A stretch of DNA of 64,000 nt from an uncultured bacterium (GCA_963727525.1 CAVSGO010000005.1:256001-320000), one strand, 5' to 3'; positions 15,867-58,002 are shown, counted from the first letter of the stretch. Notes: generated from the letters alone by a model not told the origin. A program made the numbers and translations.

Positions 15867-16054
15867 TCGCCGAGCCACGCCGACAACGTCTTGTCCTGTC
15901 GTACCACGTTCCGTAAGACGTCGCCCACCCCGGGTGCCGGCGCGAGTCGAGCACCGCGCGCGGATGCGCGCTCGGATGCGATTTGACCTCGACGACCACC
16001 CTGGTTTACACTCTCGGACCCTCCGACCCTGACATTCGAGCAAGGGAGCGTACC

Positions 16055-35318: not shown

Positions 35319-37334
35319 TCAGCTCACCGCGGCGATGGCCTCGAGGTTGTGGCGCGCATCGTCGTGGTCGGGGTGGCGGGCGAGCACGTCCTCGAGCATG
35401 GCCACGGCCCGACCAGCGTCACCCTGTTGCCACAGGGTCACCGCCAGATCGCTCGCCGCGCGCGGATCCTCGGGCCTGCTGGCGAGCACGGACCTGAAGT
35501 GCCGCTCGGCCTGAGCCAGTCGGCCGCGTGCGAAGAGGTCCTCGCCCATCACGAGCCGGCGCTCCAGGTCCCATGCCGACCATGGCAGGGGATCGAGGCG
35601 GGGCCCGGCCGCCAGCGGCTCGGTGTGCAGAGCGGGCAGGAATCCGTCGGCCAGCAGGACCTCGGGGGGCAGGGCCGCGCCCTGCTCCACACTGTCAGGT
35701 AACCCCCACTTGCGCTTGAAGATGGCGAAGCGGCTCTCGATCTGCGTGGCGTAGTCGATCTTGCCCGCCACGAAGCTGCGGCTGCCGAAGTGGTGCACGA
35801 AGCTGTCTTCCACCATCAGCGCGCGCCAGTCGGCGAGGAAGGCGCGCAGGCAGTAGTCGGTATCCTCATAGTTGCCCTGACCGAAGCCCTCGTCGAGGCC
35901 ACCGATCTCCTCGATCACGCGGCGGCGGATGAGCAGGCAGAAACCGACGGCGCACAGCAGCGGCGTGGTGCGGCCGGCGAAGCGCACGGCGCGGCTGGCC
36001 GCGAAGCGGTCGAGCCCCGTGCAGGTGGGCTGGTCATACCGGACGCGCGCAAGTTTCTGTGCGCCGGAGATGTTGTTGGTCACGGGTCCGAACAACCCGG
36101 CGCGGGGATGGCGCGCGAGCGCGGCCAACAGAGTGTCGAGCCAGCCGGGCGTGACGACGGTGTCGTTGTTCAGCAGCAGCACGTGGTCGCCGCGCGCCGC
36201 GCTGATACCCTGGTTGTTGCCGGCGGCAAAACCGCGGTTCTCGGCGTTGAGGATCACGCGCACGCGGTTCTCGCGCCTTGCCAGGTCCTGCAGCCATTGC
36301 GGCGTCCCGTCGGTACTTCCGTTGTCGACGAAGATCAGCTCGTGCCGGGGATGCGTGTGCACCAGCAACGACGCCGCGCAGCGCTCGGTATACGCGCGCG
36401 CGTTCCAGGTGAGTACCACGATCGAAACCGTGGGAGCCGCACCCGCGCGTGGCGGGCGCGGATCGCGCGCCAGGGGCAACGCATACGTGATGCGCCTCTT
36501 GGTGCTCACGATCTGCCTCTTGCACTCGGAGGCGGCGAGGAACTCCGGCTTGATGACGCCGCGCCACCGCGCGGTGAGCACCTCGCTGTTGTGTCTCACC
36601 TGCCGCCACCGTTCGGGTCCCGACTGTGATTCGAAGTGCCAGACGACGCATGCCGGCTGATACACAAGCCGCCACCCGGCCTGGACCAGCCTGAAGCAGA
36701 GGTCCACGTCCTCGTTGCCGTTCCAGTAGATGGGGTCGAATCCGCCGGCGGCTGCAAAGGCCTCGCGGCGCACCATCAGGCACGCCGCCGTCAATACCTG
36801 GCACTCCCGGGGACGCTGATACGCGGGATCGTTGGCCGACTTCCTGTATCCCCGATGTCGGCCAACCACGTTGACGTGGCCATCCGAGCTCGCGCCCTCG
36901 AACACCCCCGCGCCGGCGTGCTGGATCGTCCCGTCCGGAAAGAGCAGCAGCGCGCCCACCGCGCCAACCGCGGGATCGCGATCGAGCGTATCGACCAGCG
37001 GCTCCAGCCACCGAGGCGTGACGACGGTGTCGTTGTTCAGGAAGAGCAGGTGGCGCCCGCGGGCCACGTCCGCTCCCGCATTGCAACCGCGCGCAAACCC
37101 CAGGTTCTCACCCGGTGCGACCACGCGCAGCTCGCCGGCGGCCTCGCGCGCGCGAAGGTAGGCCGGCGAACCGTCCGTGCTGCCGTTGTCCACCACCACG
37201 ATCTCGGCCATCCCAGCGGGCGTATACTCCGCCAGCGACTCGAGACAGGCCCGCGTGAGGTCGAGCTTGTTGAACGCGGGGATGATGATCGACACGTCCG
37301 GTACGGACGTGGCGGTATTCGTCGGCCTCGTCAC
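35319..37334 (-). CDS. Two-domain GT2 glycosyltransferase with C-terminal TPR
   Basis: Two GT-A domains (VDNGSTDG, FLNNDT / LLNNDT, EDVDLC / EDTDYC); TPR-like tail; GGAGG RBS. Confidence 0.9.
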   Translation of the reverse strand: MTRPTNTATSVPDVSIIIPAFNKLDLTRACLESLAEYTPAGMAEIVVVDNGSTDGSPAYLRAREAAGELRVVAPGENLGFARGCNAGADVARGRHLLFLNNDTVVTPRWLEPLVDTLDRDPAVGAVGALLLFPDGTIQHAGAGVFEGASSDGHVNVVGRHRGYRKSANDPAYQRPRECQVLTAACLMVRREAFAAAGGFDPIYWNGNEDVDLCFRLVQAGWRLVYQPACVVWHFESQSGPERWRQVRHNSEVLTARWRGVIKPEFLAASECKRQIVSTKRRITYALPLARDPRPPRAGAAPTVSIVVLTWNARAYTERCAASLLVHTHPRHELIFVDNGSTDGTPQWLQDLARRENRVRVILNAENRGFAAGNNQGISAARGDHVLLLNNDTVVTPGWLDTLLAALARHPRAGLFGPVTNNISGAQKLARVRYDQPTCTGLDRFAASRAVRFAGRTTPLLCAVGFCLLIRRRVIEEIGGLDEGFGQGNYEDTDYCLRAFLADWRALMVEDSFVHHFGSRSFVAGKIDYATQIESRFAIFKRKWGLPDSVEQGAALPPEVLLADGFLPALHTEPLAAGPRLDPLPWSAWDLERRLVMGEDLFARGRLAQAERHFRSVLASRPEDPRAASDLAVTLWQQGDAGRAVAMLEDVLARHPDHDDARHNLEAIAAVS

Positions 37335-37450
37335 GGGATACCTCCTGACTTCCGCCGCCCCGAGCCAGAACCGTTCCAGACCTCCCACACCGTGGCCCTG
37401 GGCTTGCAAGTCTCCCCTCGAGATACCCGACCCATACCCTGGAGCCCACG

Positions 37451-38401
37451 ATGGCAACGGTCTTTCTGCTCTGCTCGGAACTGTCCGGCAGCAATCTGAT
37501 CACCCGGATGGTCGACAACCATCCGCAGTACTGTACGCCGTCCCCGGCGCACCTGATCCGCCTGCTCGCCCCCTACGAAGCGGCGTATGGCGACCTGACG
37601 CGTGACGATCCCTGGCGCCGGCTGTGTGCCGACACGGCCGACATCCTCGCCACCACCCTTTCCCCGTGGCGCACGACCCCGACCGCCGCCGAGCTGCAAG
37701 CGCGCGTCCCGGATCGCACGTTACCGGCCCTGCTGCGCCACGTGTTCGCCGACGAGGTCGCGGCCCACGGCAAATCGGAACTTTTCGTCGCAGAGAGCCG
37801 CCTATGGCGCGACCTGCCGTACCTGCTGACGGTCTGGCCCGATGCCCGCGCCATCGTCCTGGTACGAGATCCCCGCGACGTGGCCCTCGCCTGGAAGCGC
37901 TCGCCGGTCCACCGCGGCGACGTGGTGCGCGCCGCGCGGGTGTGGCAGCAGGACCAGGCGGCCGGCCTGAGCGTCGTCGGCCATCTGCGCGACGGTCGGC
38001 ACGGTCTCCTGCTCACCTACGAAGATCTCGCCATCGTGCCCGAACTGGAGATGATCCGCCTCTGCCGTTTCCTGGGCGTGGCGTACGATCCGGCCCAGCT
38101 GAGGGGACCGGATGCCGGCGACACCGTGGGCGAATTCCGCGCGGGTCTCTCGCCCTCCGAGGTCGCCCTCGTGGAGCGGATCTGTGCGCAAGAGATGGAG
38201 CAGCTGGATTACGTCCCCGAAACGGCCGACCGGCGTTCATTGACCGAACTCGAGGCCCGGCTCCTGCCGCGCGAGCGCCACGATAAACCCGAATACCGGC
38301 TGCTCCCGGCGAAGGAACGCGCTGCCCGCGCGCGCCGCGAGCTGCTGATTCGCCGCCTCGAGGCCAGCCGCGAGCCGGCAAGCCTGAGCATCGGAAGCTG
38401 A
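37451..38401 (+). CDS. Sulfotransferase-family protein (possibly degenerate PAPS loop)
   Basis: SELSGSNLITRMVDNHP; 3'-PB LVRDPRDVALAW; TYEDL. Confidence 0.8.
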   Translation: MATVFLLCSELSGSNLITRMVDNHPQYCTPSPAHLIRLLAPYEAAYGDLTRDDPWRRLCADTADILATTLSPWRTTPTAAELQARVPDRTLPALLRHVFADEVAAHGKSELFVAESRLWRDLPYLLTVWPDARAIVLVRDPRDVALAWKRSPVHRGDVVRAARVWQQDQAAGLSVVGHLRDGRHGLLLTYEDLAIVPELEMIRLCRFLGVAYDPAQLRGPDAGDTVGEFRAGLSPSEVALVERICAQEMEQLDYVPETADRRSLTELEARLLPRERHDKPEYRLLPAKERAARARRELLIRRLEASREPASLSIGS

Positions 38402-38408
38402 GGCCACC

Positions 38409-39428
38409 GTGAATGAACGCGACCGCATGCCCGCGTTCCAGCGCAACGCCCGCCTCGAGAGCGTGCTCGACGTGCTCAACGGTGAGCTCGCCACCCTCGG
38501 CGAGCACATCAGCCTGCGCTACGACCAGCCGCACAACCCACCGGTGCTCATCCTCGGCTGCGCGCGCAGCGGAACCACGCTGTTGCTGCAGTGGCTCGCC
38601 GCCGGCGGCGACGTGACATACGCCAGCAACCTCATCGCCCGGTTCTTTGCCGCCCCCTGGATCGGCGCTCGCGTGCAGCAGGTCCTCACCGATCCGGGCT
38701 GTGCGTGCGGCGACGAATTCGCCGACCTCGCCGGCGCCGACACCTCGCTCTGGTATCGCTCCGATCTCGGCAAGACCCGGGGCCTGCTCGCTCCGAACGA
38801 GTTCTGGTACTTCTGGCGCCGCTTCTTCCCCACGGGCGAGCTGGCGCGCATCGACGAGTCCAGATGGGATCCGGCGCTCGGCACACGTTTCGCGGCCGAG
38901 CTGGCAGCGTGGGAGCACGTGACGGGCAGGCCGCTCGCTCTCAAGGCGGGTATCCTGAGCTGGAATCTCCCGCTCCTGGCGCGACTCCTGCCGCGCGCCA
39001 TCTTCCTGCACGTATCTCGGGAGCCACTGGCCAACCTGCAGTCGCTGCTCCTGGCGCGCCGCCGCTACTTCGGCTGCGACGATCTCTGGTATTCCCACAA
39101 GCCCGACGAGTACGCGGAACTCGCCGACCTGCCGGTCCCCGATCAACTCGCCGGCCAGCTCGCAGCCACCGAGCGGGCTATCGCGACCGGCCTGGCAGGC
39201 CTGTCGCCACAGCGGGTGCTCGCGATTTCCTACGAGGATTTCTGTGCCGACCCTGGTGCCGTCCACGCCGATCTCGCAGCGCGAGTGCGCGCGCTGGGCG
39301 GGCGCCATCTGCGTTCCTACACGGGGCCGGCGCGCTTCGAGGCCACGAACGGCCTGCGCCTCACGCCGGGGGAATACCGGCCGTTGATCGAGGCCTGGGA
39401 GCGCACGTCCGGCCTCAGCGTGGCCTGA
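38409..39428 (+). CDS. Sulfotransferase
   Basis: GCARSGTTLL 5'-PSB; HVSREPLANLQS 3'-PB; ISYEDFCADP. Confidence 0.88.
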   Translation: MNERDRMPAFQRNARLESVLDVLNGELATLGEHISLRYDQPHNPPVLILGCARSGTTLLLQWLAAGGDVTYASNLIARFFAAPWIGARVQQVLTDPGCACGDEFADLAGADTSLWYRSDLGKTRGLLAPNEFWYFWRRFFPTGELARIDESRWDPALGTRFAAELAAWEHVTGRPLALKAGILSWNLPLLARLLPRAIFLHVSREPLANLQSLLLARRRYFGCDDLWYSHKPDEYAELADLPVPDQLAGQLAATERAIATGLAGLSPQRVLAISYEDFCADPGAVHADLAARVRALGGRHLRSYTGPARFEATNGLRLTPGEYRPLIEAWERTSGLSVA

Positions 39429-40632
39429 GCTGACCCGTCGCGACCCGACGCACATGCCTCTGCTTCGCCTCGCGGTCGAGAGCCTGAACGGCGGCGGTCG
39501 AGGGGCGCCGAAGCAGATATCGCCAGCAGAGCGCCATCACCTCGCGCACCTCGTCGATCTCCAGCCAGGCACGTCCGAGGTTGAGCGTGGCGCCGAGATG
39601 GTCGGGATCGCATTCCAGCGCGCGCGACCAGTACGTCACGGCGCGCTCACGATCTCCGCCCTCCCACGTGAGGCATGCGAGATCGTCGAGAGCATCGACA
39701 TAGGCGGGGTCCTCGGTCAGGATCCGATCGAGGATCGCCATCGCGGCCTCCGCATCGCCGGCAGCCGCGAGCGCGCTCGCCCGCTGCCGCATGGTATCGA
39801 GGCGAGCCCACCGGACCGCGAGCTGCGGATCGAGAGGCCGCACGACCCACGGCGCACCGCGCTGCGGGTCGTATACGCCGGCCGCGGTGGCGTCGTCGCG
39901 CAGCACGATCCAGGCGGCGACCGCCGCCGCCATGAACGCCGGATCTCGCTGCACCTGGGCGTCGTGCTGGCGGAAGTCGCTCAGGGGGTCGCGGAAATAG
40001 ACGGCGTCGCCTCGCGTGAGCAGGCTCGTCCACATGTACGTGTCGCCGTTCTTCGGCGCCGCCCGGCCCGCGAAGCTCATGATGTGCGGCGTGTTGCCGG
40101 CGAGATCGGCCCGGCGGAACATCACGGTGGTCGGTTCGCCCACGACGTTGGTCTGCGTGCGCAGCATGCGATCGAGGAGTCCGAGCCCGCCGATCACGGC
40201 GTCGTCCCGGACGAGCGGCACGTTGAAGGACTGGTCCGGCAGCCGGTTGCCGTCGGCATCGATGAGACAGCGATAGGACGTGGCCAGCGTCACGTTGGGA
40301 TGGGCGTCGAGGGCGGCGCTCATGCGTGCCAGGCAGTCGGGCGCCAGGCGGTCGTCGTCGTTGAGGTACTTGATGTAGTGGCCTCTTGCGAGATCGAAGC
40401 ACTGCAGGTAGTTGCGCCGACCACCGATCGTGCCGGGATTGCGCACGAAACGCACCCGCGGGTCGTCACCCGCCACCTCGCGCACGATCGCAGCGATGGT
40501 GTCGTCCGGGCTGTCGTCACAGATCACATGCTCGAAATCGGGGCAGCTCTGGGCCTGGGCGCTGCGGAGGCAATCCGCGAAGTACGTCGCCTTGAAAGCC
40601 GTCGTGAGGATGCTGATCCGGGGTACGCTCAT
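39415..40632 (-). CDS. GT2 glycosyltransferase with C-terminal TPR
   Basis: ICDDSPDD; YLNDDDRL; VGEPTTVMFRR; TPR tail. Confidence 0.88.
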   Translation of the reverse strand: MSVPRISILTTAFKATYFADCLRSAQAQSCPDFEHVICDDSPDDTIAAIVREVAGDDPRVRFVRNPGTIGGRRNYLQCFDLARGHYIKYLNDDDRLAPDCLARMSAALDAHPNVTLATSYRCLIDADGNRLPDQSFNVPLVRDDAVIGGLGLLDRMLRTQTNVVGEPTTVMFRRADLAGNTPHIMSFAGRAAPKNGDTYMWTSLLTRGDAVYFRDPLSDFRQHDAQVQRDPAFMAAAVAAWIVLRDDATAAGVYDPQRGAPWVVRPLDPQLAVRWARLDTMRQRASALAAAGDAEAAMAILDRILTEDPAYVDALDDLACLTWEGGDRERAVTYWSRALECDPDHLGATLNLGRAWLEIDEVREVMALCWRYLLRRPSTAAVQALDREAKQRHVRRVATGQLRPR

Positions 40633-40717
40633 GAACACGGGCTTCTCCTCGCTGGAGTAGGCCCGTGTCCAGGCAAGATTTGCGCCAGCCAGGGGATCAG
40701 TTCCATGGTCGAGACAA

Positions 40718-41341
40718 TCAGCGGCCGTTGGCCCCGCAGATCGTGGCGAAGGCCCGGTGCACCCGCCCATCCGACGTCAATTCCGGATGGAATGCCAGGC
40801 CCAGGACGCGGCCCTGACGCACCCCCGCAGGCTCGCCATCCGGGCGGCGGCACACGACCTCGGCGCCGGGACCGACGTCGGTGATCCGCGGCGCCCTGAT
40901 GTAGACGGCCGCCAACGGAGCCGCGCTCCCACCCTCATCTCCGAACACCGCGGGCGCGAGAGTGAGGTTCTCGGTGAAGGAATCGATCTGACGTCCGTAA
41001 CCGTTGCGTTGCACGGACACGTCGAGCAGCCCCAGGGGTCGCACGCCGTGCCGGTCAGGCCGCGTCTCGTCCACCACGTCGCGAGCCAGCATGATCAGCC
41101 CCGCACACGTGCCCAGCACGGGGCGCTCGTGGGCGAAGTCGATCAGGGGCTGCCGCAGATCGTTGCGGTCGATCAAACGCGAGAGCGTGGTGGACTCGCC
41201 ACCGGGGATGACGAGTCCAGCCACCTCTGCCAGCTCGGACGCCCGCCGCACCGGGAGCGTGGACACGCCCACCGCGGCGAAGGCCTGGCGGTGCATGTCG
41301 AAGTCGCCCTGCAGGGCCAGCACTCCGATCGGTCGGCCCAT
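40718..41341 (-). CDS. pdxT: PLP synthase glutaminase subunit
   Basis: GVLALQGDF; PGGESTT; GTCAGLI; RNGYGRQIDSF; FHPELT. Confidence 0.95.
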   Translation of the reverse strand: MGRPIGVLALQGDFDMHRQAFAAVGVSTLPVRRASELAEVAGLVIPGGESTTLSRLIDRNDLRQPLIDFAHERPVLGTCAGLIMLARDVVDETRPDRHGVRPLGLLDVSVQRNGYGRQIDSFTENLTLAPAVFGDEGGSAAPLAAVYIRAPRITDVGPGAEVVCRRPDGEPAGVRQGRVLGLAFHPELTSDGRVHRAFATICGANGR

Positions 41342-45536: not shown

Positions 45537-45622
45537 GTCGCCCCGCGGACTGCGGGTCGGTGGGTCACCGTTGTACGGATCACGGCCCCGGGTACGGCTC
45601 GCCCGGGGCCATGAATCATTTG

Positions 45623-46848
45623 GGTTGTGCCGTCGAAAATGTGTCCGGCCTCCGGCTTGCCCTGGCCGGGGCCATGTCATGCATCGAATCCCACCACTCC
45701 AGCTGGTTGCCTCCCTTCTGCCCCAACCATCACTGCCAGTTCCACAGCGAACTCCAGCCAGGCTGGCGCTTCAAACGCATCGGCTTCTTCACCCGCCAGG
45801 CCCATCCCCACCGTATCCCCAGGTTTCTCTGCCTACACTGCCGTGTCTCCTTCAGTTCACAGACCTTCTCCCCGGACTACTGGCTCAAGCGACCAGATAT
45901 CCTCCCGCAACTCATGACCAAGACCTGCGGCGCCATGGCCAATCGCCAGGCCGCCCGTGATCTCGGCGTCTGCCCCACCACCGTCAACCGCCAGCTCGAC
46001 CGCCTCGGTCGCCATTGTCTGCTCTTCTTCGCCCAGGAGATGCCGACGGCTCCGCCCCCCGCAGACATCGTCATCGACGGACTCGAGACCTTCGAACTCA
46101 GCCAGTACTTCCCCTTCCACCACAACGTCGCCGTCGACGCGAAGTCGGGGCTGATCCGGGGCTTCACCGACAGCCCGCTGCGCCGCAAGGGTCGCATGAC
46201 GGCCTACCAGAAGCGTCGTCGCCAGGATCTCGAAGAGCATTTCGGCCGACCGGACCCCAAGGCGGTGCAGAAGGGCATTCGCGACTTGCTGGCGATGGTG
46301 CTCGAGAAGTGTGAACGGCTGGTGACGGTCCGCAGCGACGATCACCCCGCCTACAAGCGTGCCATCGCGAGTCTGCCTCATCGAATCCGGCACGAGGTGA
46401 CGAACTCGAAGGAACGCCGGGACAAGGACAATCCGTTGTGGGAGGCAAATTTGCTGGACTTGATCTTGCGGCATGCGAGCGCGAATCACCGTCGGGAGAC
46501 GATCGCGTGGTCGAAGCGGAGGCAGGGGTCGACGTACCGCCTGGCGATCCTGGCGGTCTGGCGCAACTGGGTGCAGTCACGGTGGGTGAAGCGGCCAGGC
46601 GAGACGCCGGCGATGGCCGCGGGCCTGGTCGATCGGCCGCTCGCTGTGGAGGAAATCCTGGGGAAACGGTTGTTTCCCAGCAAGGTGGAGTTGTCGCCGC
46701 TCTGGGAGGAGTACTACTGGAAACGGGTGGAGACCCCGGCATTGGGCGTGAATCGGCGGCATGAGTTGACGTTCGCGAGGTGAGGGGCGAACAAACGCGG
46801 CCGGCGAATTCGGCCGCCGGCCGCGGACACAATTTCGACGGCACAACC
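45623..46848 (+). mobile_element. IS1-like insertion sequence, copy B (divergent from copy A)
   Basis: Inverted repeats GGTTGTGCCGTCGAAAATGTGTCC (45623-45646) and GGACACAATTTCGACGGCACAACC (46825-46848), 23/24 match. Confidence 0.85.
45674..46783 (+). CDS. IS1-like transposase, paralogue of 513-1622
   Basis: Colinear motifs: CPNHHC...CLHC, YWLKR, RLGRHC, IDGLETFELSQYFP, RSDDHPAY, EANLLDLILRH, RETIAWSKRRQ, YYWKRVET. Confidence 0.82.
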   Translation: MSCIESHHSSWLPPFCPNHHCQFHSELQPGWRFKRIGFFTRQAHPHRIPRFLCLHCRVSFSSQTFSPDYWLKRPDILPQLMTKTCGAMANRQAARDLGVCPTTVNRQLDRLGRHCLLFFAQEMPTAPPPADIVIDGLETFELSQYFPFHHNVAVDAKSGLIRGFTDSPLRRKGRMTAYQKRRRQDLEEHFGRPDPKAVQKGIRDLLAMVLEKCERLVTVRSDDHPAYKRAIASLPHRIRHEVTNSKERRDKDNPLWEANLLDLILRHASANHRRETIAWSKRRQGSTYRLAILAVWRNWVQSRWVKRPGETPAMAAGLVDRPLAVEEILGKRLFPSKVELSPLWEEYYWKRVETPALGVNRRHELTFAR

Positions 46849-47025: not shown

Positions 47026-47373
47026 ATGCACGTCCGCGACCTCGACGAGAACCTGAGCGCCACAGCCCGACTGGCCGTGTTGACGACGCTCTTTCCGGGA
47101 GAGCCGGTGAGTTTTTCCGATCTGAAGACCCGTACAGGCATTGCGGACGGTAACCTCCATGTGCAGACCCGGCGCCTGGCCAGCGCTGGTTTACTTTCGA
47201 TCACGAAGTTGCCTACCGGCAAACGCACCCAGACGATGTTCCGGATCACGGACGACGGCGTCGTACGCCTACGCATCCAGGTGCAGCGGCTGGTGGCGGT
47301 GGTGACCGGCGACGAGGGTGCCATCTTGCCGCAAGCCGCGCGGGAACGTTACGACGAATCGCGGGTCTGGTAG
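47026..47373 (+). CDS. Winged-helix transcriptional regulator (MarR/ArsR-like)
   Basis: ARLAVL...[28 protein letters not shown]...FRITDDG; ends 29 bp before the BMC operon. Confidence 0.82.
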
Positions 47374-47402
47374 CCAGCTCCGCGGAACCGAGGCGACCCA
47401 GC

Positions 47403-48731
47403 ATGAAGATCGCAATCGGCGCCGATCACGGCGGATTCGACCTCAAGGCCCGGCTGATCCGCCACCTTGGGCAGAACGGCCACCAGGTCGAGGACGTCGG
47501 AACTTCTTCCCATGAAGCTGTGGACTATCCAGTCTATGCGCGGGCCGTCGCCGAGGCCGTGGCCAGCGGCCGGACCGATCGCGGCATCATGATCGACGGC
47601 GCCGGCATCGGCTCCTCCATGGTCGCCAACAAGGTGCCTGGAGTACGCGCCGCCCTCGCCTACGACCTCTCCAGTGCCCGCAACGGGCGCGAGCACAACG
47701 ACGCCAACGTGCTCACACTCGGCGCCGGCCTCATCGGGCCGAACCTGGCCGAACAGCTCGTGGACATCTTCCTGACCGCCGAGTGCCGCGAACCGCGCCA
47801 TCAGCGCCGCGTGGCCATGATCGATGCAGCGGCCCCGACCCGTTCTCCAGCATCCGACAGTCTGCCCGCCGAACTCGACGCCGCCGACCTCGAGCGCATC
47901 GTCGCACGCCTCGCCCAGATGTTACCGGCCGGGGCGGCCACGTGCGGCCCCTGCGTCACAACCTGCCCCGACACGGCGCGCCATCTCATCGGCCTGGGCG
48001 CCGCGCGCCTCAGCACTGGCGGCGCGAAGGCGCCGACCAGCCCGGGCCACATCCCCGAGGACATCGCGCGCTACATCGACCACACCATCCTCAAGCCCGC
48101 CGCCACGCGCGCGGACGTGATGAAGGTGTGCGCCGAGGCCCGGGAGCACGGCTTCCGATCCGTCTGTGTCAATCCCTGCTGGATCGCCACCGTGGCCGGC
48201 GAACTGCGCGGTACCCGGGTGCTCACCTGCTCGGTGGTGGGGTTCCCCCTGGGCGCCGCCACGCCGCAGATCAAGGCCGCCGAGACGCGCCAGGCCATCC
48301 GCGACGGCGCCCGCGAGATCGACATGGTCATCAACGTGGGCGCCTTGAAGAGCGGTGACGACGCCCAGGTGCTGCGCGACATCCGCGCCGTCACCGACGC
48401 CTGCGTCGACGGCGGCGCCACGTGCAAGGTCATCATCGAGACCGTCCTGCTCACCGACGCCGAGAAGGTGCGCGCCTGCGAACTGGCCCGCAGGGCGCGT
48501 GCCCACTTCGTGAAGACGAGCACGGGCTTCGCCGGCGGCGGGGCCACCGCGGCCGATGTCGCGCTCATGGCAAGCGTGGTACGCGGCGCGGGCATGGAAG
48601 TGAAGGCATCGGGCGGCATCCGCTCGTACGACGACGCGAAGCAGATGATCGAAGCCGGCGCCACCCGTATCGGCGCCAGCGCGAGCATCGCCATCGTCCA
48701 GGAAGCGCAGGGGCTGACCGTCAGCGCCTAG
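47403..48731 (+). CDS. deoC: RpiB-family sugar-phosphate isomerase / deoxyribose-phosphate aldolase (DeoC) fusion, BMC cargo
   Basis: N-terminal RpiB ([33 protein letters not shown]); C-terminal DeoC ([32 protein letters not shown]); amphipathic helix in the linker. Confidence 0.92.
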
Positions 48732-48745
48732 CCGGGAGTGTGAGC

Positions 48746-49369
48746 ATGGTCGACCTGAGAGCCTTCTGCGTGATCGACAGCCTGCAGCCGCAGTTCGCCT
48801 CGTTCCAGGCGACGGTGGCCCAGGGCTTCTTGCCGCGCGTCGGGCAAGCCAGCCTCTTCGTGGAGATCGCGCCGGGCATCGAGATCAACCGGGTCATGGA
48901 CATAGCCCTGAAGTCGACCCAGGTCACGCCCGGCATGCAGATCGTCGAGCGCCACTTCGGCATGCTCGAGGTGCACGCCGACAGCCAGGCCGACGTGCGG
49001 CAGGCTGGCGCCGCCATCCTCAGCGCACTCGACCTCGCGGAGCACGGTCGCTTGAAGCCGCGCATCGTGTCGGACCAGGTGGTGCGCCACCTCGACGACC
49101 ATCAGTGCATGCTCATCAACCGCACCCGCCACGGCAACATGATCCTCGCGGGCCAGACCCTCTTCATTCTCGAGTGCGAGCCCGCGGCCTACGCCGCCCT
49201 GGCGGCCAACGAGGCGGAGAAGGCGGCGCGCATCAACATCCTCGAGGTGCGGGCCTACGGCAGCTTCGGCCGCCTGTACATCGGCGGCGAGGAAGCCGAC
49301 GTGGCCGTGGCGCGGCCGGCCGCGCTCGCCGCCCTCGAGTCTCTCGATGGACGCGTCGTGAAGAAGTAA
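48746..49369 (+). CDS. BMC-T shell protein, double-stacking CcmP/CsoS1D type
   Basis: LRAFCVIDSLQPQFA...GFLP...EIAPG...VERHFGMLEVH...YGSFGRLYIGG. Confidence 0.9.
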   Translation: MVDLRAFCVIDSLQPQFASFQATVAQGFLPRVGQASLFVEIAPGIEINRVMDIALKSTQVTPGMQIVERHFGMLEVHADSQADVRQAGAAILSALDLAEHGRLKPRIVSDQVVRHLDDHQCMLINRTRHGNMILAGQTLFILECEPAAYAALAANEAEKAARINILEVRAYGSFGRLYIGGEEADVAVARPAALAALESLDGRVVKK

Positions 49370-49417
49370 CGTGCCAACCGTCCGGCCGCGGCCGGACAAC
49401 GCAGCAAGGAGCCCGTC

Positions 49418-49717
49418 ATGTCGGACGCATTGGGAATGATCGAGTGCAGGAGCTTCGCCGCGATGGTCGAGGCCGCCGACGCCATGGTAAAAGCGGCGCG
49501 CGTGGAACTGGTGAGCTACGAGAAGACCGGTGGAGGCTACACCACGGCCGTCATCCGCGGCGACGTGGCCGCGGTGAAGGCCGCCTGCGATGCGGGCCAG
49601 ACTGCGGCCACGCGCGTGGGCGAGATCGTGGCAGTGCACATCATCGCGCGGCCACATGCCAACGTCGACCTGGTGATCCCGCTGGGCCGGCAGGCGGACA
49701 AGACCGTCAAGAAGTAG
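49418..49717 (+). CDS. BMC-H shell hexamer (PduA/EutM/CcmK family)
   Basis: ALGMIE...[10 protein letters not shown]...GDVAAVKAA...HIIARPH. Confidence 0.96.
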
Positions 49718-49736
49718 CGGACCGACAGGAGAGGTC

Positions 49737-50036
49737 ATGAACCTGGCCAGGGTCATCGGCACCGTGGTGGCGACGCGCAAGGAACCGCGCCTCGACGGCC
49801 TGAAGCTGCTCCTGCTCGGCATCGCCGGTCCCGATGCGGAACTCACCGGCGGCACGGTGGTGGCCGCCGATGCGGTGGGCGCCGGCGAGGGCGAGTACGT
49901 CCTTTTTGCCTCGGGCTCGAGCGCACGGCAAACGCAGGCCACGGATGGAAAACCGGTCGACGCGGTGGTGATGGCGATCGTCGATAGCTGGGAGATCGGC
50001 GGCGAGGATCGCTACCACAAGGGCCGCGACGACTAA
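49737..50036 (+). CDS. BMC-P vertex protein (EutN/CcmL family)
   Basis: [15 protein letters not shown]...DAVGAGEGE...GSSAR...[11 protein letters not shown]. Confidence 0.95.
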
Positions 50037-50045
50037 GGAGCGCAT

Positions 50046-51494
50046 ATGACGCGCCTCAACGACGCCCAGATCGACGCCATCGCGCGCGGCTTGGCCGCCC
50101 GCATCGGTGGTGGCACCGCCCCACCCGCGGTGCCGGCACCAGCGGCGGCGCCGATGAGTCCGCCGACCGGCGACGGCGTCTTCCCCACGGTCGATGCCTG
50201 CGTGGATGCGGCTCGCACCGCCTTCCGGCAACTCACCGCGTTGTCGCTCACGCGCCGCCAGGAGATCATCGCCGCGATCCGCGCGGCCGTGCTGTCCGCC
50301 GTCGAGGACCTGGCTCGGCAGGCTGTCGAGGAGACCGGGCTGGGACGCGTGGAGCACAAGACGATCAAGAACCGCCTGGTCACGACCAAGACGCCCGGGC
50401 CGGAATGCCTCACGCCGCGCGCCGAGACGGGCGACCACGGCCTCACGCTCACCGAGTACGCGCCGTACGGCGTGATCGGCGCCATCACGCCCACCACCAA
50501 CCCCACCAGCACGATCATCTGCAACACCATCGGCATGGTGTCGGCAGGCAACACGGTGGTCTTCAACGTGCACCCCAACGCCACGCGGTGCTCCATGGCA
50601 ACGGTGCGCCTGATCAATCGCGCGATCGTGGACGCCGGCGGCCCGGCCAGCACCATCGCCGCCGTGGCCACGCCCACCATCGAGTCGGCCGGCGCGCTGA
50701 TGCACCACCGCGGCGTGAACCTGCTGGCGGTGACGGGCGGGCCTGGCGTGGTGAAGGCGGCCATGGTCAGCGGCAAGCGCGCCATCTGCGCAGGGCCGGG
50801 CAACCCGCCGGTGGTGGTGGACGCCACGGCCGATCTTGCGAAGGCCGGCCGCGACATCGTGTACGGCGCCGGCTTCGACAACAACGTCGTGTGTACCGAT
50901 GAGAAGGAGGTCTTCGTCGTCGCCGGCGTGGCCGACGAGCTGATCCGCGTCATGTGCGCCCATCGCGCCTACCTGCTGAACGCCGACGAGTTGAGCCGGC
51001 TCGAGGCGGTCATTTTCGCGGAGAAGCCCCAGCCGCGCCGCCACGGCGTGATCAACAAGGACCTCGTGGGCAAGAACGCCGGCGAGATCCTCGGCCGCAT
51101 CGGCGGCAACGCCGGCCCCAAGCTGGCCCTGCTCATCGCCGACGTGCCCGAGGACCACCCGCTCGTCTGGAGCGAGCAGCTCATGCCGGTGCTGCCGATC
51201 GTGCGCGTGGACAGCGTGGATCGCGCGATCGATCTCGCGAAGGAGGCGGAGCACGGCTTCGGCCACTCCGCGTCGATGCACTCGCGCGACATCGTGGCGC
51301 TCAGCCGCATGGCCCGTGAGATCAACACCAGCATCTTCGTCAAGAACGGCCCCATCACCACCGGCCTGGGCGCCGGCGGCGAGGGCCACACCAGCTTCAC
51401 CATCGCGAGTCCCACCGGCGAGGGATTGACGTATCCCGTCAGCTTCAGCCGCCTGCGCCGCTGCGTGATGGTGGACCACTTCAGGATCGTGTAG
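50046..51494 (+). CDS. CoA-acylating aldehyde dehydrogenase (EutE/PduP-like) with N-terminal encapsulation peptide
   Basis: PYGVIGAITPTTNP; VTGGPGVV; GPGNPP; FDNNVVCTDEKE (catalytic Cys); TIASPTGEG; N-terminal LNDAQIDAIARGLAARI followed by a Pro/Ala linker. Confidence 0.95.
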   Translation: MTRLNDAQIDAIARGLAARIGGGTAPPAVPAPAAAPMSPPTGDGVFPTVDACVDAARTAFRQLTALSLTRRQEIIAAIRAAVLSAVEDLARQAVEETGLGRVEHKTIKNRLVTTKTPGPECLTPRAETGDHGLTLTEYAPYGVIGAITPTTNPTSTIICNTIGMVSAGNTVVFNVHPNATRCSMATVRLINRAIVDAGGPASTIAAVATPTIESAGALMHHRGVNLLAVTGGPGVVKAAMVSGKRAICAGPGNPPVVVDATADLAKAGRDIVYGAGFDNNVVCTDEKEVFVVAGVADELIRVMCAHRAYLLNADELSRLEAVIFAEKPQPRRHGVINKDLVGKNAGEILGRIGGNAGPKLALLIADVPEDHPLVWSEQLMPVLPIVRVDSVDRAIDLAKEAEHGFGHSASMHSRDIVALSRMAREINTSIFVKNGPITTGLGAGGEGHTSFTIASPTGEGLTYPVSFSRLRRCVMVDHFRIV

Positions 51495-52118
51495 ATGCGC
51501 GCGACGGCGATAGCTCTGCTGGAATACCGGTCGATCGCCGCGGGTATGGCGGCCGTCGACCGCATGCTCAAGTGTTCGCCCATCGCGATCCTGAAGTGCG
51601 GCACGATCCATCCCGGCCGCTACCTCGCCCTCGTGGGCGGGTCGGTCGCCAGCACGGAGGAAGCCTGGCGAACGGGATGTGGGGTAGGCGAGGTCACGGA
51701 CGACATCTGCCTGCCCGACCCCCATCCGGCGCTCGTCGCCGGCCTGTTCGAGACGCCGCGCCTCGTCACGGACGACGAGGCCATGGCCGTCATCGAGACC
51801 ACCACATCCCCCGCCCTGCTGCGCGGCGTCGATGTTGCCCTCAAGGCGGTGCCCATCAGCCTGACCGTTCTGCGCCTCGCCGACGACCTCGGCGGCCGCG
51901 GCCTCGCGGTCTTCACCGGCGGGCTCACCGATCTTCAAGCGGCCCTGGCGGTCCTGAACGCGAGCGTCGGCCCGCGCGGCACCCTCTGCGGCCAGTCGCT
52001 CATGCCCCGCGTGGAGTCGACGCTGCAAACGATCGTGGGCACCACCACCCGCTTCGCCGCCTGCGGCATCCATGAGCCGGACGGCGCGGAGCTCGTGCCC
52101 GAGAACACGGAGGTCTGA
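51495..52118 (+). CDS. BMC-T shell protein, PduT-like
   Basis: IALLEYRSIAAG...DRMLK...TIHPGRY; second domain VIET...DVALKA...LRLADDLGGRG. Confidence 0.88.
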   Translation: MRATAIALLEYRSIAAGMAAVDRMLKCSPIAILKCGTIHPGRYLALVGGSVASTEEAWRTGCGVGEVTDDICLPDPHPALVAGLFETPRLVTDDEAMAVIETTTSPALLRGVDVALKAVPISLTVLRLADDLGGRGLAVFTGGLTDLQAALAVLNASVGPRGTLCGQSLMPRVESTLQTIVGTTTRFAACGIHEPDGAELVPENTEV

Positions 52119-52119
52119 T

Positions 52120-52401
52120 ATGCATCTCGGCCGCGTGATCGGTAGTCTCGTCGCCACCATCGTCAGCGACGGCCTGACCGGTGTGCCCCTGCTCTGGGTG
52201 CAGCCCCTCGACAAGCGCGGCGCCGCCCTCGGCCGGTGCTTCGTCGCCGCCGACGGCACCCGCATGGCCGACCGCGACGAGCTGATATACTGGGAAGCCA
52301 GCCGCGAGGCCGCACTCACCCTCGACCCCAGCTTCGTCCCGGTCGACCACGCCATCGTTGGCATCGTCGACGACGTGCAACTCGACGAGGTTCCGTCGTG
52401 A
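52120..52401 (+). CDS. BMC-P vertex protein (EutN/CcmL family)
   Basis: MHLGRVIGSLVAT...SREAA...PVDHAIVGIVD. Confidence 0.9.
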   Translation: MHLGRVIGSLVATIVSDGLTGVPLLWVQPLDKRGAALGRCFVAADGTRMADRDELIYWEASREAALTLDPSFVPVDHAIVGIVDDVQLDEVPS

Positions 52402-52673
52402 TCGTAGGCCGCGTGGCCGGGCGCATCACCTCGACGATCCACCACCCGTCGATGCAGGGCCGGACGCTCCTGATCATCGACAAGCTCGACGCCGCGGGCG
52501 CACCCACGGGCAGCACCCTGATCGCCGTGGACCATGCGGGTGCCGGCGCCGGCGAAACGGTGCTCGTACTCGACGAGGGCAACGGGGCGCGACAGATCCT
52601 CGGCGGCGACGCGCTGCCCATCCGCTCGGTGGTGGTCGGCATCATCGACGAGGCTGCGAGCCCTCCCGCCTAG
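52398..52673 (+). CDS. BMC-P vertex protein (EutN/CcmL family)
   Basis: GTG start; IVGRVAGRITSTIHH...AGAGETVLVLDEGNGARQ...VVGIID. Confidence 0.9.
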   Translation: MIVGRVAGRITSTIHHPSMQGRTLLIIDKLDAAGAPTGSTLIAVDHAGAGAGETVLVLDEGNGARQILGGDALPIRSVVVGIIDEAASPPA

Positions 52674-55102
52674 TTCGCCACCGCGAGCGTACGCACCGTG
52701 GTCTCACCGCCATAGGTGATCTTCAGGACGTAGAGACCCGCGGCCACGGGCGTGCCGTAGAAGTTCTTGCCGTCCCAGAAGCCGGACTCGGCCGAGACCA
52801 CGTCGCTGCGGAAAACCACCTGGCCTTCCAGGTTGAAGACCTGGATCTCGGCGGGGTCATCGGTGCTCGCCCCGATGCCGGCCAGCCGCAACATGCCGTC
52901 GCCGCCGGTCCCGGGGAAGGGATTGGGATAGAGGTAGACCGAGGTCAACGAGCCCACGGGGCCGCTCGACTTGTCTCCCACGGTGACGATGGCACCGCCG
53001 CGGCTGCTGCTCACCACGAGACGTCGCCCCGAGTCGTCGATATCGAGTCCGCGATACGTGCCGCCCGGCAGAGCCACCACGACGTTGTCGGTGTAGAGAC
53101 CCGTACGCGCCAGCGGGATGTACGACTCGAGGTCCGTGTAGGCGTCGACCTGGCGTTGCGGTGCCGGCTCGCTCAGCCGGATCCGATTCAGGCCGATATC
53201 CGTGAGCACCCAGAGATCGCCATTGTGGTCGAGTTCCATGCCCTTCACGGCCTTGCTCAGGAGTCCCTGATCGAGAGGGGACGTCTTGTTGCCGTAGCTG
53301 GCCACCCGGGTGGCGATCCCGGTGGCGACGTCGTAGGTGAAGCCGACCACGCCGTTGCCCCCCACCCAGATGGTCCCGTCGGTTCCGAGCACCATCGCGT
53401 TCGCCAGGCTGATGTCGAAGGCTGTGTCGGGTATGGCCGTGACCGGCGGGGACATGACGTCGTCGCTCGTGTCGGTCCATGTGAGGCGATCGTTCGGGCC
53501 TGCCGACGCGCCGTTGATGTCCCAGCGTACCAGGCCGACGTTGCGCACCGCGAACCAGATCACGTCGCGCCGCTCCACGAGCGCCGCCTCCACGTCGATG
53601 CCACCGACGTCCGGCGTCACCCAGACGCTGGAGTCGTGGAAGTGGTCGGGATCGACGAGAACCTGTGCGCCGACCGTGGGTGCATCTTCACTGGTCATGA
53701 CGATGATCGGACCGTCGGGATGCGCGAGGACCTTGGCGATGGGCGTGCCCACGAGGCCGCTGTTGCCGGGATAGATGAGATCATACTCGTCGTGGTCGAG
53801 CCCCGTGACCGCGGCGGCACGGTAGCGGACGAGCCCGCTGTAGTACTGCGCGAGCCAGAGCGCGCCCGACGGGTCGTGGTCGATGTCCAGAATGGCGCCC
53901 AGCAGGTTGAAGAGGCCCGACGAATCGTTCGCAGCCGTGGCGAGGCTGTAGATCGACGACCAGCCCAGATCCTCGCTCCAGCCGGAAGCTCCCGCTCCCC
54001 AGCGATCGCCGATCCAGGCGCGCCCGAGCGTATCGAACGCCGAGCCGGCCGCATCGGCCGTGACCGACATCACCCGATGCCACTGCTGCCACTCGCTGTT
54101 CCGCAGGCGCGCCAGCCAGGGGTAGCCGGAGTCCGAATCGCCGCTGCGCATATCGCCGATGCGCAGACGCCCGCCCACCCAGATGTCGTCGCCGTCGAGC
54201 GCGAAGCAGCCGTAGTTGACGCTCTGGTCCGCGGGCGGGGTGGGGTGCGCATAGACGGTCAATTGGCCATCGATATCTCTGTACACCGTACCGATGTAGT
54301 TGACCGTCCAGATGTCGTCACCGTCCGTCGCCACGTCGAGATACCAGGCGCCGGCACCGAATTGCAGCTCCCACTCGTCGGTTACAAGGTTCAGCCGCAG
54401 CACGCCATCGCGGGTGGCGATGACCGGCCGTCCCTGGCTGTCGCAGGCGATGCGTTCCACGACGTCCGTGATGCCAGTGTTGATCGGGGTGAACGTGTTG
54501 TCGGCGAACCGGCACACACCCGCCTGCGTGACGACGTAGACCACCTCGCCTGACACCGCGATACCGGTGACGTGATCATCGAGCAGCCCGTCGGCCGTCG
54601 TGTAGTAGCCACCGGGCAGGCCGTCGGTGATGATGCCGATCCCGTTGCTCTCCGTGCCGTAGTAGATCCGTTCGGTCGTCCCCGCGACGACACCGGTGAC
54701 GGCGGTGACCTTGACGCTGGCGAGCGTGGTCGAGTAGCGGCGCATCGTCGGCTGCGCGGCCTCGGGATTCGTGATGCGCGTCATGCCGCCATCGAGCGTG
54801 GCCACCCAGAGATGCTCTCCTGTCCAGCAGAGGTCCGTGACCTCGAACCCGCCGAGGCCGCTGTCGGACGCGAATGAGCGCTGCACCGCGGGGTCGTCCA
54901 CCGACCAGGCCACGAGCCCGCCCGAAGGCGTGGCCGTGTAGACCCAGCCTCCGTGCACGAGAGCGCGGTTCACCGACCAGCCCCGCATGAGGAGCTGGAA
55001 ATCGGCGGACTGCGCCAGAGCCGCCCCCGCGAACACCAGGCCCAGCACGCTCAGGCAACACACCGACAACAGCCGCGGCACGGTACGATTCATGGCTTCC
55101 AT
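52670..55102 (-). CDS. Secreted beta-propeller protein (regulator-propeller / PorZ-like) with C-terminal FlgD-like domain
   Basis: Signal peptide; LWVAT.GG and GL.S..V...D..G.LWV.T..GL repeats; C-terminal YPNPF...WDGKNFYG...AAGLY. Confidence 0.8.
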   Translation of the reverse strand: MEAMNRTVPRLLSVCCLSVLGLVFAGAALAQSADFQLLMRGWSVNRALVHGGWVYTATPSGGLVAWSVDDPAVQRSFASDSGLGGFEVTDLCWTGEHLWVATLDGGMTRITNPEAAQPTMRRYSTTLASVKVTAVTGVVAGTTERIYYGTESNGIGIITDGLPGGYYTTADGLLDDHVTGIAVSGEVVYVVTQAGVCRFADNTFTPINTGITDVVERIACDSQGRPVIATRDGVLRLNLVTDEWELQFGAGAWYLDVATDGDDIWTVNYIGTVYRDIDGQLTVYAHPTPPADQSVNYGCFALDGDDIWVGGRLRIGDMRSGDSDSGYPWLARLRNSEWQQWHRVMSVTADAAGSAFDTLGRAWIGDRWGAGASGWSEDLGWSSIYSLATAANDSSGLFNLLGAILDIDHDPSGALWLAQYYSGLVRYRAAAVTGLDHDEYDLIYPGNSGLVGTPIAKVLAHPDGPIIVMTSEDAPTVGAQVLVDPDHFHDSSVWVTPDVGGIDVEAALVERRDVIWFAVRNVGLVRWDINGASAGPNDRLTWTDTSDDVMSPPVTAIPDTAFDISLANAMVLGTDGTIWVGGNGVVGFTYDVATGIATRVASYGNKTSPLDQGLLSKAVKGMELDHNGDLWVLTDIGLNRIRLSEPAPQRQVDAYTDLESYIPLARTGLYTDNVVVALPGGTYRGLDIDDSGRRLVVSSSRGGAIVTVGDKSSGPVGSLTSVYLYPNPFPGTGGDGMLRLAGIGASTDDPAEIQVFNLEGQVVFRSDVVSAESGFWDGKNFYGTPVAAGLYVLKITYGGETTVRTLAVAN

Positions 55103-56691: not shown

Positions 56692-58002
56692 CTACCGCAC
56701 GTAACCCAGCGACTTGAGCTTCTCGATCGCCGCGGCATCGAGCGTGATCCTGGTGGTCTCGCCGGCGTAGCGATGGCAGTCGCGCTCGAAGGCGGTGAGC
56801 TGGGCAATGAGGTCGTGCGCCACGTCGGGATGGGCGTCGAGAACGGACGTCTGCTCGGCGGGGTCGGCCGCGAGGTCATAGAGCGCGACGTTGTCGGGCT
56901 CGGTGACGATCACCTTGTCGTGACCCCGGATGACGGCTTTCCACACGAGGTTGTCGAACCAGGGCGGGCAGCGCAGGTCGAGGAAGAGCGCCCGCTGCGG
57001 CGGGATGGCCGCCTCGCCACGCGCCGCCGGCGCGAGGCTCATGCCCATCGCCTCGGCCACGCGCGGCAGGCCTGCGAGATCCGACACCGTGGGCAGCACG
57101 TCGAGCAGGCTGGCCTGGCCGCCGACGCGCCGGGGCTGCAAACCACCGTCGGGATAGGCGACCACCAGCGGCACGTCGGTGACCTCGTGATACAGCGTGC
57201 GGCCGTGGTCCCAGTCGCCGTGGTCGAGAAATTCCTCGCCGTGATCGGCCGTGACCACGATGATCGTGTTGCGGGGCCAGTCGAGCTTGCGCGCGAGGTC
57301 GCGGAGATTGCGGTCGAGGAAGCTGATCTCGCTGTCGTACGCGGCAATGGAATCGTCGCGCTCGTTGGTCTGGGCATGGTACCACGGCGCGTGCTTCTCG
57401 TAGGGCCGGTGCGGCTCCATGTAGTGCAGGTAGAGGAAGTAGGGCTGGCTACGGTCGCGGGTCCTGTCCCACGCGAGCACGCGCGCGTTCACGGCGCCGC
57501 ATCCCTCGTTGTCCGATCCGCTGAAGGTTGCGAAACCCTGATCGAAGCCCATGGCCGGGATGATGTTCGGATTGTCGGCAACCCCGCAGGTGACGTAGCC
57601 GGCCGCCTGGAACGCCTCGGCCATGGTCGTGCACGCCGCGGGAATACGCGGTAGCGTGACGCTGGGATCGACCTTCTGCAGCGCCTGCACCGCCGTGATG
57701 CCCGCCAGCACGCCGTGCTGGATCGGCGCGAGCGACGTCATGATCGAGGCCGTGGCGGGCGCCGTCCACGACGAGGTGCTGTGGGCGTGCTCGAACACGA
57801 CGCCCTGGGCGGCGAGTTCGCTCAGATAGGGCGCGGTGGTCTCGGCATGGCCATAGAACGGCAGGTGGTCGGCACGCAGCGTGTCGATGACGATGACGAC
57901 GACGTTGGGAGCCTGCGGTCCGGACTGCGACTTGCACGAGCCGAGGCACGGCAACGCCAGGAGCGCGGCGCCGACGAGAAGGGCACGGGATACCGGACGC
58001 AT
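56692..58002 (-). CDS. Sulfatase-like lipoprotein (alkaline phosphatase superfamily)
   Basis: Lipobox LGSC; VIDTLRADHL; SSWTAPATAS; HYMEPH; TADHGEEF; LYDLAADPAE; LKSLGYV. Confidence 0.9.
   Translation of the reverse strand: MRPVSRALLVGAALLALPCLGSCKSQSGPQAPNVVVIVIDTLRADHLPFYGHAETTAPYLSELAAQGVVFEHAHSTSSWTAPATASIMTSLAPIQHGVLAGITAVQALQKVDPSVTLPRIPAACTTMAEAFQAAGYVTCGVADNPNIIPAMGFDQGFATFSGSDNEGCGAVNARVLAWDRTRDRSQPYFLYLHYMEPHRPYEKHAPWYHAQTNERDDSIAAYDSEISFLDRNLRDLARKLDWPRNTIIVVTADHGEEFLDHGDWDHGRTLYHEVTDVPLVVAYPDGGLQPRRVGGQASLLDVLPTVSDLAGLPRVAEAMGMSLAPAARGEAAIPPQRALFLDLRCPPWFDNLVWKAVIRGHDKVIVTEPDNVALYDLAADPAEQTSVLDAHPDVAHDLIAQLTAFERDCHRYAGETTRITLDAAAIEKLKSLGYVR

Follow-up and report, generated by a model that had tools for sequence, protein, structure and literature searches.

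The DNA considered here is a stretch of 64,000 nucleotides from an uncultured bacterium (GCA_963727525.1, CAVSGO010000005.1:256001-320000), hereafter the window, that carries at 47026-52673 a bacterial microcompartment (BMC) locus of nine co-oriented genes separated by gaps of -4 to 48 bases (Table 1). Positions are counted from the first letter of the window and all genes of the locus are on the plus strand. In order, they encode a presumed regulator (reg), a fusion of an RpiB-like domain with an aldolase for deoxyribose-5-phosphate (DERA), the shell proteins BMC-Tdp, BMC-H and BMC-P1, an aldehyde dehydrogenase (AldDH), and the shell proteins BMC-Ts, BMC-P2 and BMC-P3, called Tdp, H, P1, Ts, P2 and P3 below. 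The gene models were set by start-codon context and homology; the G+C content of the window is about 68% throughout and long spurious frames are abundant. An earlier note on this DNA had proposed a nine-gene BMC locus with identical limits, and each of its gene calls was upheld by Pfam, NCBIfam or structure matches.

Table 1. Genes of the microcompartment locus, in order, and the hairpin upstream of it
Feature	Position	Strand	Match or remark
reg, presumed regulator, 115-aa winged-helix DNA-binding protein	47026-47373	+	Pfam HTH_34 1.8e-12
Fusion, 442-aa RpiB-DERA chimera	47403-48731	+	LacAB_rpiB 8e-53 (residues 3-140), DeoC 2e-18 (224-426), one chain
Tdp, 207-aa CcmP-like double-stacking trimer shell protein	48746-49369	+	CcmP 5lsr 1.2e-77
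H, 99-aa BMC-H hexamer	49418-49717	+	Pfam BMC 5e-29, 100.5 bits
P1, 99-aa BMC-P pentamer	49737-50036	+	EutN_CcmL 2.6e-28
AldDH, 482-aa CoA-acylating aldehyde dehydrogenase	50046-51494	+	Aldedh 1e-36
Ts, 207-aa tandem-BMC trimer shell protein, PduT fold	51495-52118	+	BMC 8e-19 in two stretches, 67.8 bits
P2, 93-aa BMC-P pentamer	52120-52401	+	EutN_CcmL 3.2e-16
P3, 91-aa BMC-P pentamer	52398-52673	+	EutN_CcmL 4.4e-24; GTG start, 4-base overlap with P2
GC-rich hairpin, perfect 11-base arms	46796-46825		just 3' of the stop of the IS-like frame; on the minus strand a T-rich run follows

The earlier note had let its BMC call depend on matches of the shell frames to PF00936 and PF03319, and the call stands: BMC was matched in H and Ts, and EutN_CcmL in three genes. 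The nine reading frames are all intact, with catalytic and pore residues retained, and the G+C of the locus (0.65-0.70) is the same as that of the remainder of the window. In the host genome (4.66 Mb on 8 contigs, 96.7% complete), the four BMC-domain matches and the three EutN matches all fall within 47026-52673; the locus is the sole shell-gene site of the genome and is self-contained, with the RpiB-DERA chimera and AldDH as its only enzymes. A hidden accessory module was also considered and rejected, as satellite shell loci, PduL, an Fe-type alcohol dehydrogenase and a PduS-like gene were sought genome-wide and none was found linked.

Related loci were collected by a scan of one genome per species, both search patterns of which lie in the DERA part. 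At least 595 of the 600 listed stretches encode a relative of the fusion (tblastn E <= 1e-3); the fusion status was verified in the best 80 of these 600. At least 120 clusters of the fusion at 69-75% identity were found, all with both Pfam domains. The best 80 records are all metagenome-assembled genomes (MAGs), which makes the uncultured lineage proposed in the earlier note plausible, and they come from more than ten phyla, with Krumholzibacteriota, Acidobacteriota (including Thermoanaerobaculia), Gemmatimonadota, Fibrobacterota, Gammaproteobacteria (including Woeseiaceae) and Planctomycetota, as well as Verrucomicrobiota, Kiritimatiellia, Lentisphaerae, Calditrichota, Eisenbacteria, Ignavibacteria, Elusimicrobia, Marinimicrobia, Acidimicrobiia and Chloroflexia. 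When the nine proteins were compared by tblastn with the 80 loci, the order fus-Tdp-H-P-AldDH-Ts-P-P was complete in 54, with the three P paralogues always in the same order; since this eight-gene order recurs in so many loci, the arrangement in the window is not due to chance. Another 21 loci show a prefix of the core order, cut at most 1.5 kb from a contig end, and five deviate (L068, L070, L083, L085 and L089). Two of the latter, L085 (Vicinamibacteria MAG, 8001-9275) and L089 (Bryobacteraceae MAG, 8001-9146), encode fusions at about 50% identity, and in their 8-kb flanks neither shell genes nor an AldDH gene could be recognised; the RpiB-DERA chimera may also occur outside microcompartment loci.

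A homologue of the regulator lies directly 5' of the fusion in 30 of the 80 loci, and reg itself has no NCBIfam match. The flanking genes are lineage-specific, no family being shared by more than 10 of the 80 loci, and the cassette therefore ends at P3. Of 20 recurrent flanking families, 15 were scanned with Pfam; among the recurrent flanking genes are those for nucleoside phosphorylase (in 10 loci), PfkB kinase (in 9), endo/exonuclease-phosphatase (in 7), TonB-dependent receptor (in 6) and phosphopentomutase (in 4). Among 201 sampled genomes of the phylum of the window, 191 have a match at E <= 1e-30, and among the matches listed a single frame spans both domains in 67 of the 201, mostly from the window's own family, the rest matching mostly in the DERA part only. 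In six genomes of the same phylum (G097, G130, G158, G156, G009 and G188), the RpiB and DERA parts are adjacent on the same strand in different frames: either split and fused forms coexist in close relatives or these are frameshifts of MAG assembly.

The chimera consists of an RpiB-like domain (residues 1-144), a linker (145-216) and a DERA domain (217-436). The DERA domain passes the NCBIfam deoC equivalog with 259.5 bits for a cut-off of 117.3 and matches the solved structure 8qps at 2.4e-76; the RpiB domain narrowly passes the rpiB equivalog TIGR01120 (146.5 for a cut-off of 138.65). The fusion was aligned with E. coli RpiB and DeoC from NC_000913.3, and the catalytic triad of the DERA, D307, K371 and K401, falls on E. 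coli D102, K167 and K201. At the position of the E. coli catalytic Cys66 the RpiB domain carries Asp65, and at that of Thr68 Ala; it retains D8/H9, H98, N99, R132 and R136 (E. coli D9, H10, H99, N100, R133 and R137); D8, H9, D65, H98, N99, R132, H133 and R136 show no variation in 19 of 19 aligned homologues, whose mean identity is about 73%. The statement of the earlier note that RpiB and DeoC define the class calls for a correction: with an Asp in place of the catalytic Cys, an isomerase step is not to be assumed. The two other RpiB genes of the genome have kept this Cys; one non-BMC RpiB gene adjoins a frame that resembles a transketolase, as judged by eye from its translation alone. No peptide precedes the RpiB-like domain, which begins at residue 3, position 47403 being the first ATG, GTG or TTG after an in-frame stop.

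Solved DERAs align with the fusion only from residue 213 or later, and residues 145-216 match no solved DERA or RpiB. In an AlphaFold2 model of the fusion, built on a 19-row alignment, one helix spans residues 160-172 (block pLDDT 78), with disordered stretches on either side, and another spans 189-204. The hydrophobic moment of the linker helix, 0.68, is above the 95th percentile of shuffled sequences (0.63), and its motif recurs in relatives, with a match in 55 loci of which at least three (L019, L027 and L038) are off-frame noise. A motif much like that of this helix is found in the first 20 residues of AldDH, where a helix at about residues 3-20 is followed by a Pro/Ala-rich linker to about residue 44; in the form L-[ST]-[DE]-x-Q-[VI]-[DE]-x-I-A it was found beside the AldDH gene in 65 loci, with a variable Pro/Ala/Ser linker after it. 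The similar amphipathic helices in the linker of the fusion and at the N-terminus of AldDH are probably encapsulation peptides. AldDH itself passes NCBIfam NF011927 with 622.3 bits for a cut-off of 403 and matches the BMC-associated acylating dehydrogenase 5jfl at 7.7e-136, its Cys283, kept in 62 of 68 orthologues, being aligned with the catalytic Cys.

Between the linker helix and the DERA barrel, residues 176-193 of the fusion hold three Cys (C181, C184 and C188). We compared this stretch in loci L039, L043, L045, L049, L057, L075, L077 and L080: there is no Cys in Woeseiaceae, and there are up to about six, in CxCC...C...C patterns, in relatives from Planctomycetota and Calditrichota. After it comes the motif P-[DE]-x-[AV]-R-x-[FL], which is conserved. 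The Cys-rich stretch, with 0 to 6 Cys in relatives, might add a metal-binding site or a redox switch.

The shell set comprises a hexamer, a CcmP-like gated double trimer, a trimer of the PduT fold and three paralogous pentamers. Tdp scores 24.4 bits with Pfam BMC, just below the cut-off of 24.5, and matches solved CcmP of the beta-carboxysome (5lsr) over its full length (residues 2-203), as well as the Haliangium ochraceum (HO) trimers 5v76 (7.9e-69) and 5v74 (4.6e-66). Its E68 and R69, each kept in 73 of 74 orthologues, are aligned with E69 and R70 of CcmP, which we take to be the pore-gating pair of that protein. By contrast, Tdp stays under the cut-off of the NCBIfam CcmP equivalog NF053796 (304.9 bits, cut-off 340) and is located in a catabolic locus, in which there are no carboxysome genes. 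H, the sole BMC-H of the genome, has the pore loop K36-T-G-G-G-Y41 and finds its best native solved match in the HO hexamer HO-5815 (8.5e-42), and P1 in the HO pentamer 5v74 (2.8e-33); P2 and P3 are more divergent EutN/CcmL proteins. Ts matches PduT 3pac at 1.3e-22 and the HO trimer BMC-T1 5dih at 1.9e-16. The HO shell has three trimers, one Ts and two Tdp, whereas two trimers are encoded here; both have one BMC-H, three BMC-P and trimers of the Ts as well as the Tdp kind, when the HO model shell (PDB 5V74 and others) is taken for comparison. The resemblance to an HO-type shell that had been proposed is thus found at the sequence level, with HO proteins as the best native matches of H and P1 and HO trimers among the matches of Tdp and Ts.

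The term PduT-like, used for Ts in the earlier note, is right for the tandem-BMC fold class, but at the position of PduT Cys38, which lines the trimer pore and ligates an Fe-S cluster, Ts has His39. Among 61 orthologues this column contains H in 31, S in 15, Q in 11, T in 2, G in 1, E in 1 and Cys in none, so that an Fe-S cluster of the PduT kind is not expected in Ts and we rejected such a role. With three His at the pore of a trimer, metal binding or gating is conceivable.

For comparison with known systems we used excerpts of Sutter 2021 (PMC8217296), of Dwyer, Sutter and Kerfeld 2024 (PMC11585597) and of a 2025 preprint (PMC12747264), the last of which reports compartments of the sugar-phosphate-utilising (SPU) type in Asgard archaea, with shell assembly experiments; the literature on Krumholzibacteri or SPU3 microcompartments yielded nothing on the BMC of this lineage beyond PMC8217296 and PMC11585597. 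In these excerpts SPU3 is a catalogued subtype of SPU BMC, and CcmP-like Tdp proteins are placed in SPU2, SPU3 and HO loci (PMC8217296); 206 loci were curated, in 20 of which, all SPU3, a chimera of ribose-5-phosphate isomerase (RPI) and DERA occurs, devoid of the N-terminal peptide of free RPI (PMC11585597). The assignment to the SPU class made in the earlier note was borne out, as the window has a DERA with the Asp and two Lys and an amphipathic-helix extension of a kind that DERAs outside BMCs lack, an acylating AldDH, an RPI of PF02502 with Cys replaced by Asp and a triplet of BMC-P. The marks of SPU3 are there as well: RPI and DERA in one chain with no peptide before RPI, a CcmP-like Tdp and no phosphotransacylase (PTAC). 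To these the published descriptions add the N-terminal extension of AldDH, the pairing of Tdp with Ts and a distribution in uncultured lineages of many phyla, which are also those of the locus and its relatives. The locus differs in having no PduS homologue, an accessory and not a defining feature, and otherwise shows no structural departure from the text descriptions. Compared with the 20 published loci, the cassette with the chimera has a far wider distribution and a more rigid gene order.

According to the excerpts, the only SPU enzymes assayed are those of an SPU6 locus of Chloroflexi bacterium GWB2_54_36 (PMC11585597). That locus shares with ours the DERA triad, the Asp in RPI, AldDH, a single BMC-H, a BMC-Tdp, three BMC-P and a regulator at the head of the operon. 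By contrast, its DERA and RPI are separate proteins, each with an N-terminal peptide, its AldDH peptide is C-terminal and not N-terminal, its regulator is of the GntR/UTRA type and not a small HTH_34 winged helix, and it is described without the BMC-Ts that is present here. The purified SPU6 DERA was active on deoxyribose-5-phosphate and the SPU6 RPI had negligible activity on ribose-5-phosphate, the replacement of Cys by Asp being common to all SPU RPIs (PMC11585597). The HO main locus, for its part, lacks the DERA/RPI signature, and its function is called enigmatic in PMC8217296.

Taking these features together, the locus is very probably a complete SPU3-type metabolosome that degrades deoxyribose-5-phosphate, and the organelle most likely breaks down the deoxyribose of scavenged DNA. 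DeoA and DeoD would split deoxynucleosides in the cytosol and DeoB would make deoxyribose-5-phosphate from the product, which would then pass into the shell. There the DERA domain would cleave it to glyceraldehyde-3-phosphate, which would exit to glycolysis, and acetaldehyde, which would be held inside and oxidised by AldDH, through Cys283 and with NAD+, to acetyl-CoA; CoA and NAD(H), or acetyl-CoA, would cross the shell, most plausibly via the gated Tdp pore. The sequence deoxyribose-5-phosphate to acetaldehyde to acetyl-CoA, which the earlier note had put forward, agrees with the published SPU model (PMC11585597). A PduL-type PTAC (PF06130) has no match in the 96.7% complete genome and an Fe-type alcohol dehydrogenase none in a genome-wide search, so that internal recycling of CoA and NAD(H) by the usual partners is not encoded; a Pta-type enzyme is encoded elsewhere in the genome. 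Subtypes lacking PTAC have been proposed to export acetyl-CoA via the Tdp pore (PMC11585597).

A genome search with PF01791 gave three matches: the fusion, a fructose-bisphosphate aldolase of class I and a fragment of 147 aa that is similar to the C terminus of the latter aldolase. The stronger PF01791 match was considered as a second DERA and rejected, being the class I fructose-bisphosphate aldolase (632.8 bits, cut-off 327). On predicted gene content, the fusion is the only DERA of the genome and the only visible outlet for deoxyribose-5-phosphate. By NCBIfam cut-offs, the deoB gene (486.9 bits, cut-off 256) adjoins deoA (519.6 bits, cut-off 269) on contig 7 and a deoD-type purine nucleoside phosphorylase is on contig 6 (357.5 bits, cut-off 230); with the fusion as sole DERA, the deo pathway would thus have no other outlet.

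Several points weigh against this interpretation. The deo genes are unlinked to the BMC locus in the host genome. No PduS homologue was found in the nine genes or in the flanks within the window, the two Complex1_51K matches lying on contigs C7 and C2, and a PduS homologue is described for all subtypes but SPU6 (PMC11585597). Confidence in the fusion model is no more than moderate (mean pLDDT 74.4, pTM 0.51), and it gives the linker two helices, where the extensions of SPU DERAs are described, in the excerpts, as a helix and two strands. The moment of the N-terminal helix of AldDH, 0.53, is below the 95th percentile of its shuffles (0.57), so that amphipathicity alone is not distinctive there. 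A scan upstream of reg found no sigma-70-like promoter site, for a consensus that may not be that of the host. Finally, the SPU3 assignment was made from published text descriptions of the subtype, and the excerpts describe no experiment that used an SPU3 locus, the chimera or an assembled SPU organelle, the published assays having been made with a truncated SPU6 DERA.

The role of the RpiB-like domain is where another reading is most readily defended. The domain would be a working enzyme or ligand module, with Asp65 as the base that isomerises, ring-opens or captures a sugar phosphate other than ribose-5-phosphate, and the organelle would then take wider or different pentose or rare sugar phosphates and feed the DERA with them. 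The alignment lends itself to this, as all inspected E. coli RpiB residues are kept apart from the changes C66D and T68A, the eight pocket residues are invariant among the 19 homologues and the domain stays above the rpiB equivalog cut-off; moreover, PMC11585597 leaves other substrates open and mentions that the RpiB of M. tuberculosis uses an acidic base. However, the SPU6 RPI with the same change of Cys to Asp is all but inactive on ribose-5-phosphate, and the kinetics of DERA, with which RPI forms a complex, are not improved by complex formation (PMC11585597). The locus encodes no transketolase or other enzyme connecting ribose-5-phosphate with DERA, deoxyribose-5-phosphate has, by established chemistry, no 2-hydroxyl to isomerise, and the strong conservation is equally explicable by an interface with DERA. 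We therefore consider this reading unlikely. A more specific form, in which the RpiB pocket would bind deoxyribose-5-phosphate or another sugar phosphate and pass its open-chain form to the fused DERA, is likewise rather doubtful; if true, it would be a substrate-capture or ring-opening step that is not known from any metabolosome. Most likely, the RpiB-like domain serves in packaging or in complex formation with DERA and not in the isomerisation of ribose-5-phosphate.

It is very improbable that the main task of the shell and AldDH is the detoxification of acetaldehyde of other origin, or that the DERA runs in the synthetic direction, deoxyribose-5-phosphate catabolism not being the physiological role. 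DERA is indeed reversible (established), EUT-like satellite modules are reported for some SPU3 loci (PMC8217296) and the BMC locus is not linked to the deo genes here. Against this, the absence of any BMC-domain or EutN match outside the locus means that there is no EutL-type satellite, the deo pathway would be left without an outlet if the only DERA served another purpose, and in relatives the cassette is flanked by genes for nucleoside phosphorylase, a kinase, a nuclease and phosphopentomutase. That the locus is a decaying or silent cassette, acquired horizontally and lying beside an insertion sequence (IS)-like element, is hardly credible: a multi-copy IS-like frame does stand directly 5' of it, its flanks are not conserved across lineages (no flanking family occurs in more than 10 loci) and the scan gave no consensus sigma-70 promoter, but its nine frames are intact with their catalytic and pore residues, its G+C matches the rest of the window and the match across both domains in 67 of the 201 genomes sampled from the phylum, for the most part in the window's own family, fits vertical retention.

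A complete SPU3-type metabolosome for deoxyribose-5-phosphate thus remains the favoured reading, and as such the locus belongs to a widespread and already catalogued type, its inferred function is the published one and it brings no new principle. The remark in the earlier note that experiments have not established the biochemistry no longer applies to the family, whose SPU6 DERA and RPI have been assayed (PMC11585597), and holds for SPU3 and for the assembled SPU organelle as far as the excerpts go; the same note had granted that the novelty would fall away if an identical type of locus had been characterised before, which is largely the case, SPU3 being catalogued and SPU6 enzymes assayed. 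The role of the RPI domain and the exchange of CoA and NAD+ without PduL or an alcohol dehydrogenase are likewise questions already posed in the literature. What the present analysis would add, as predicted from sequence, is a self-contained locus with the sole DERA of its genome, an RPI pocket that is conserved save for the catalytic pair, and a Ts that is apparently not an Fe-S carrier of the PduT type. SPU organelles, which belong to the commonest metabolosomes, may be one of the chief ways for uncultured bacteria of sediment and soil to turn DNA detritus into acetyl-CoA and triose phosphate. The locus is a clean, minimal version of them: satellite loci are absent, and six shell genes stand with two enzymes, among them the only DERA of the genome. 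Confined in this way to a single locus, it would be a practical choice for reconstituting SPU3 in a heterologous host.

Upstream of the locus lie an MCP gene and an open reading frame of 407 aa (45560-46783, plus strand), neither of which is present in any of the 80 related loci, and both were for this reason ruled out as parts of the BMC system. The 407-aa frame belongs to a multi-copy family: another copy is found at 546-1616 of the window, and tblastn gave at least 35 matches on 7 of the 8 contigs, mostly at 45-50% identity and in one case at 94.5%, over 273 aa. The frame is without a match in Pfam, gives only a faint one to an IS1 transposase (21.5 bits, cut-off 100), and is probably a member of an uncatalogued family of IS transposases. 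The hairpin of Table 1 probably separates this IS-like frame from the BMC operon and may be a terminator or the end of the element; the stretch between it and position 47025 is richer in AT.

Downstream, a convergent gene (52670-55102, minus strand) encodes a secreted protein with a tail of the type IX secretion system (T9SS) type. It is one of four large secreted proteins of the window that end in a FlgD_ig/T9SS-type sorting domain, the others being encoded at 15983-18541, 19469-21259 and 26711-29908 (plus strand); one of the four has LVIVD repeats and one a weak PorZ-like tail, which suggests a rich T9SS-like secretome in this lineage. Elsewhere in the window, a cluster at 35319-40770 encodes two TPR-tailed glycosyltransferases of family 2 along with two sulfotransferases, and a sulfatase is encoded at 56692-58002, a hint of the synthesis and turnover of sulfated glycans.

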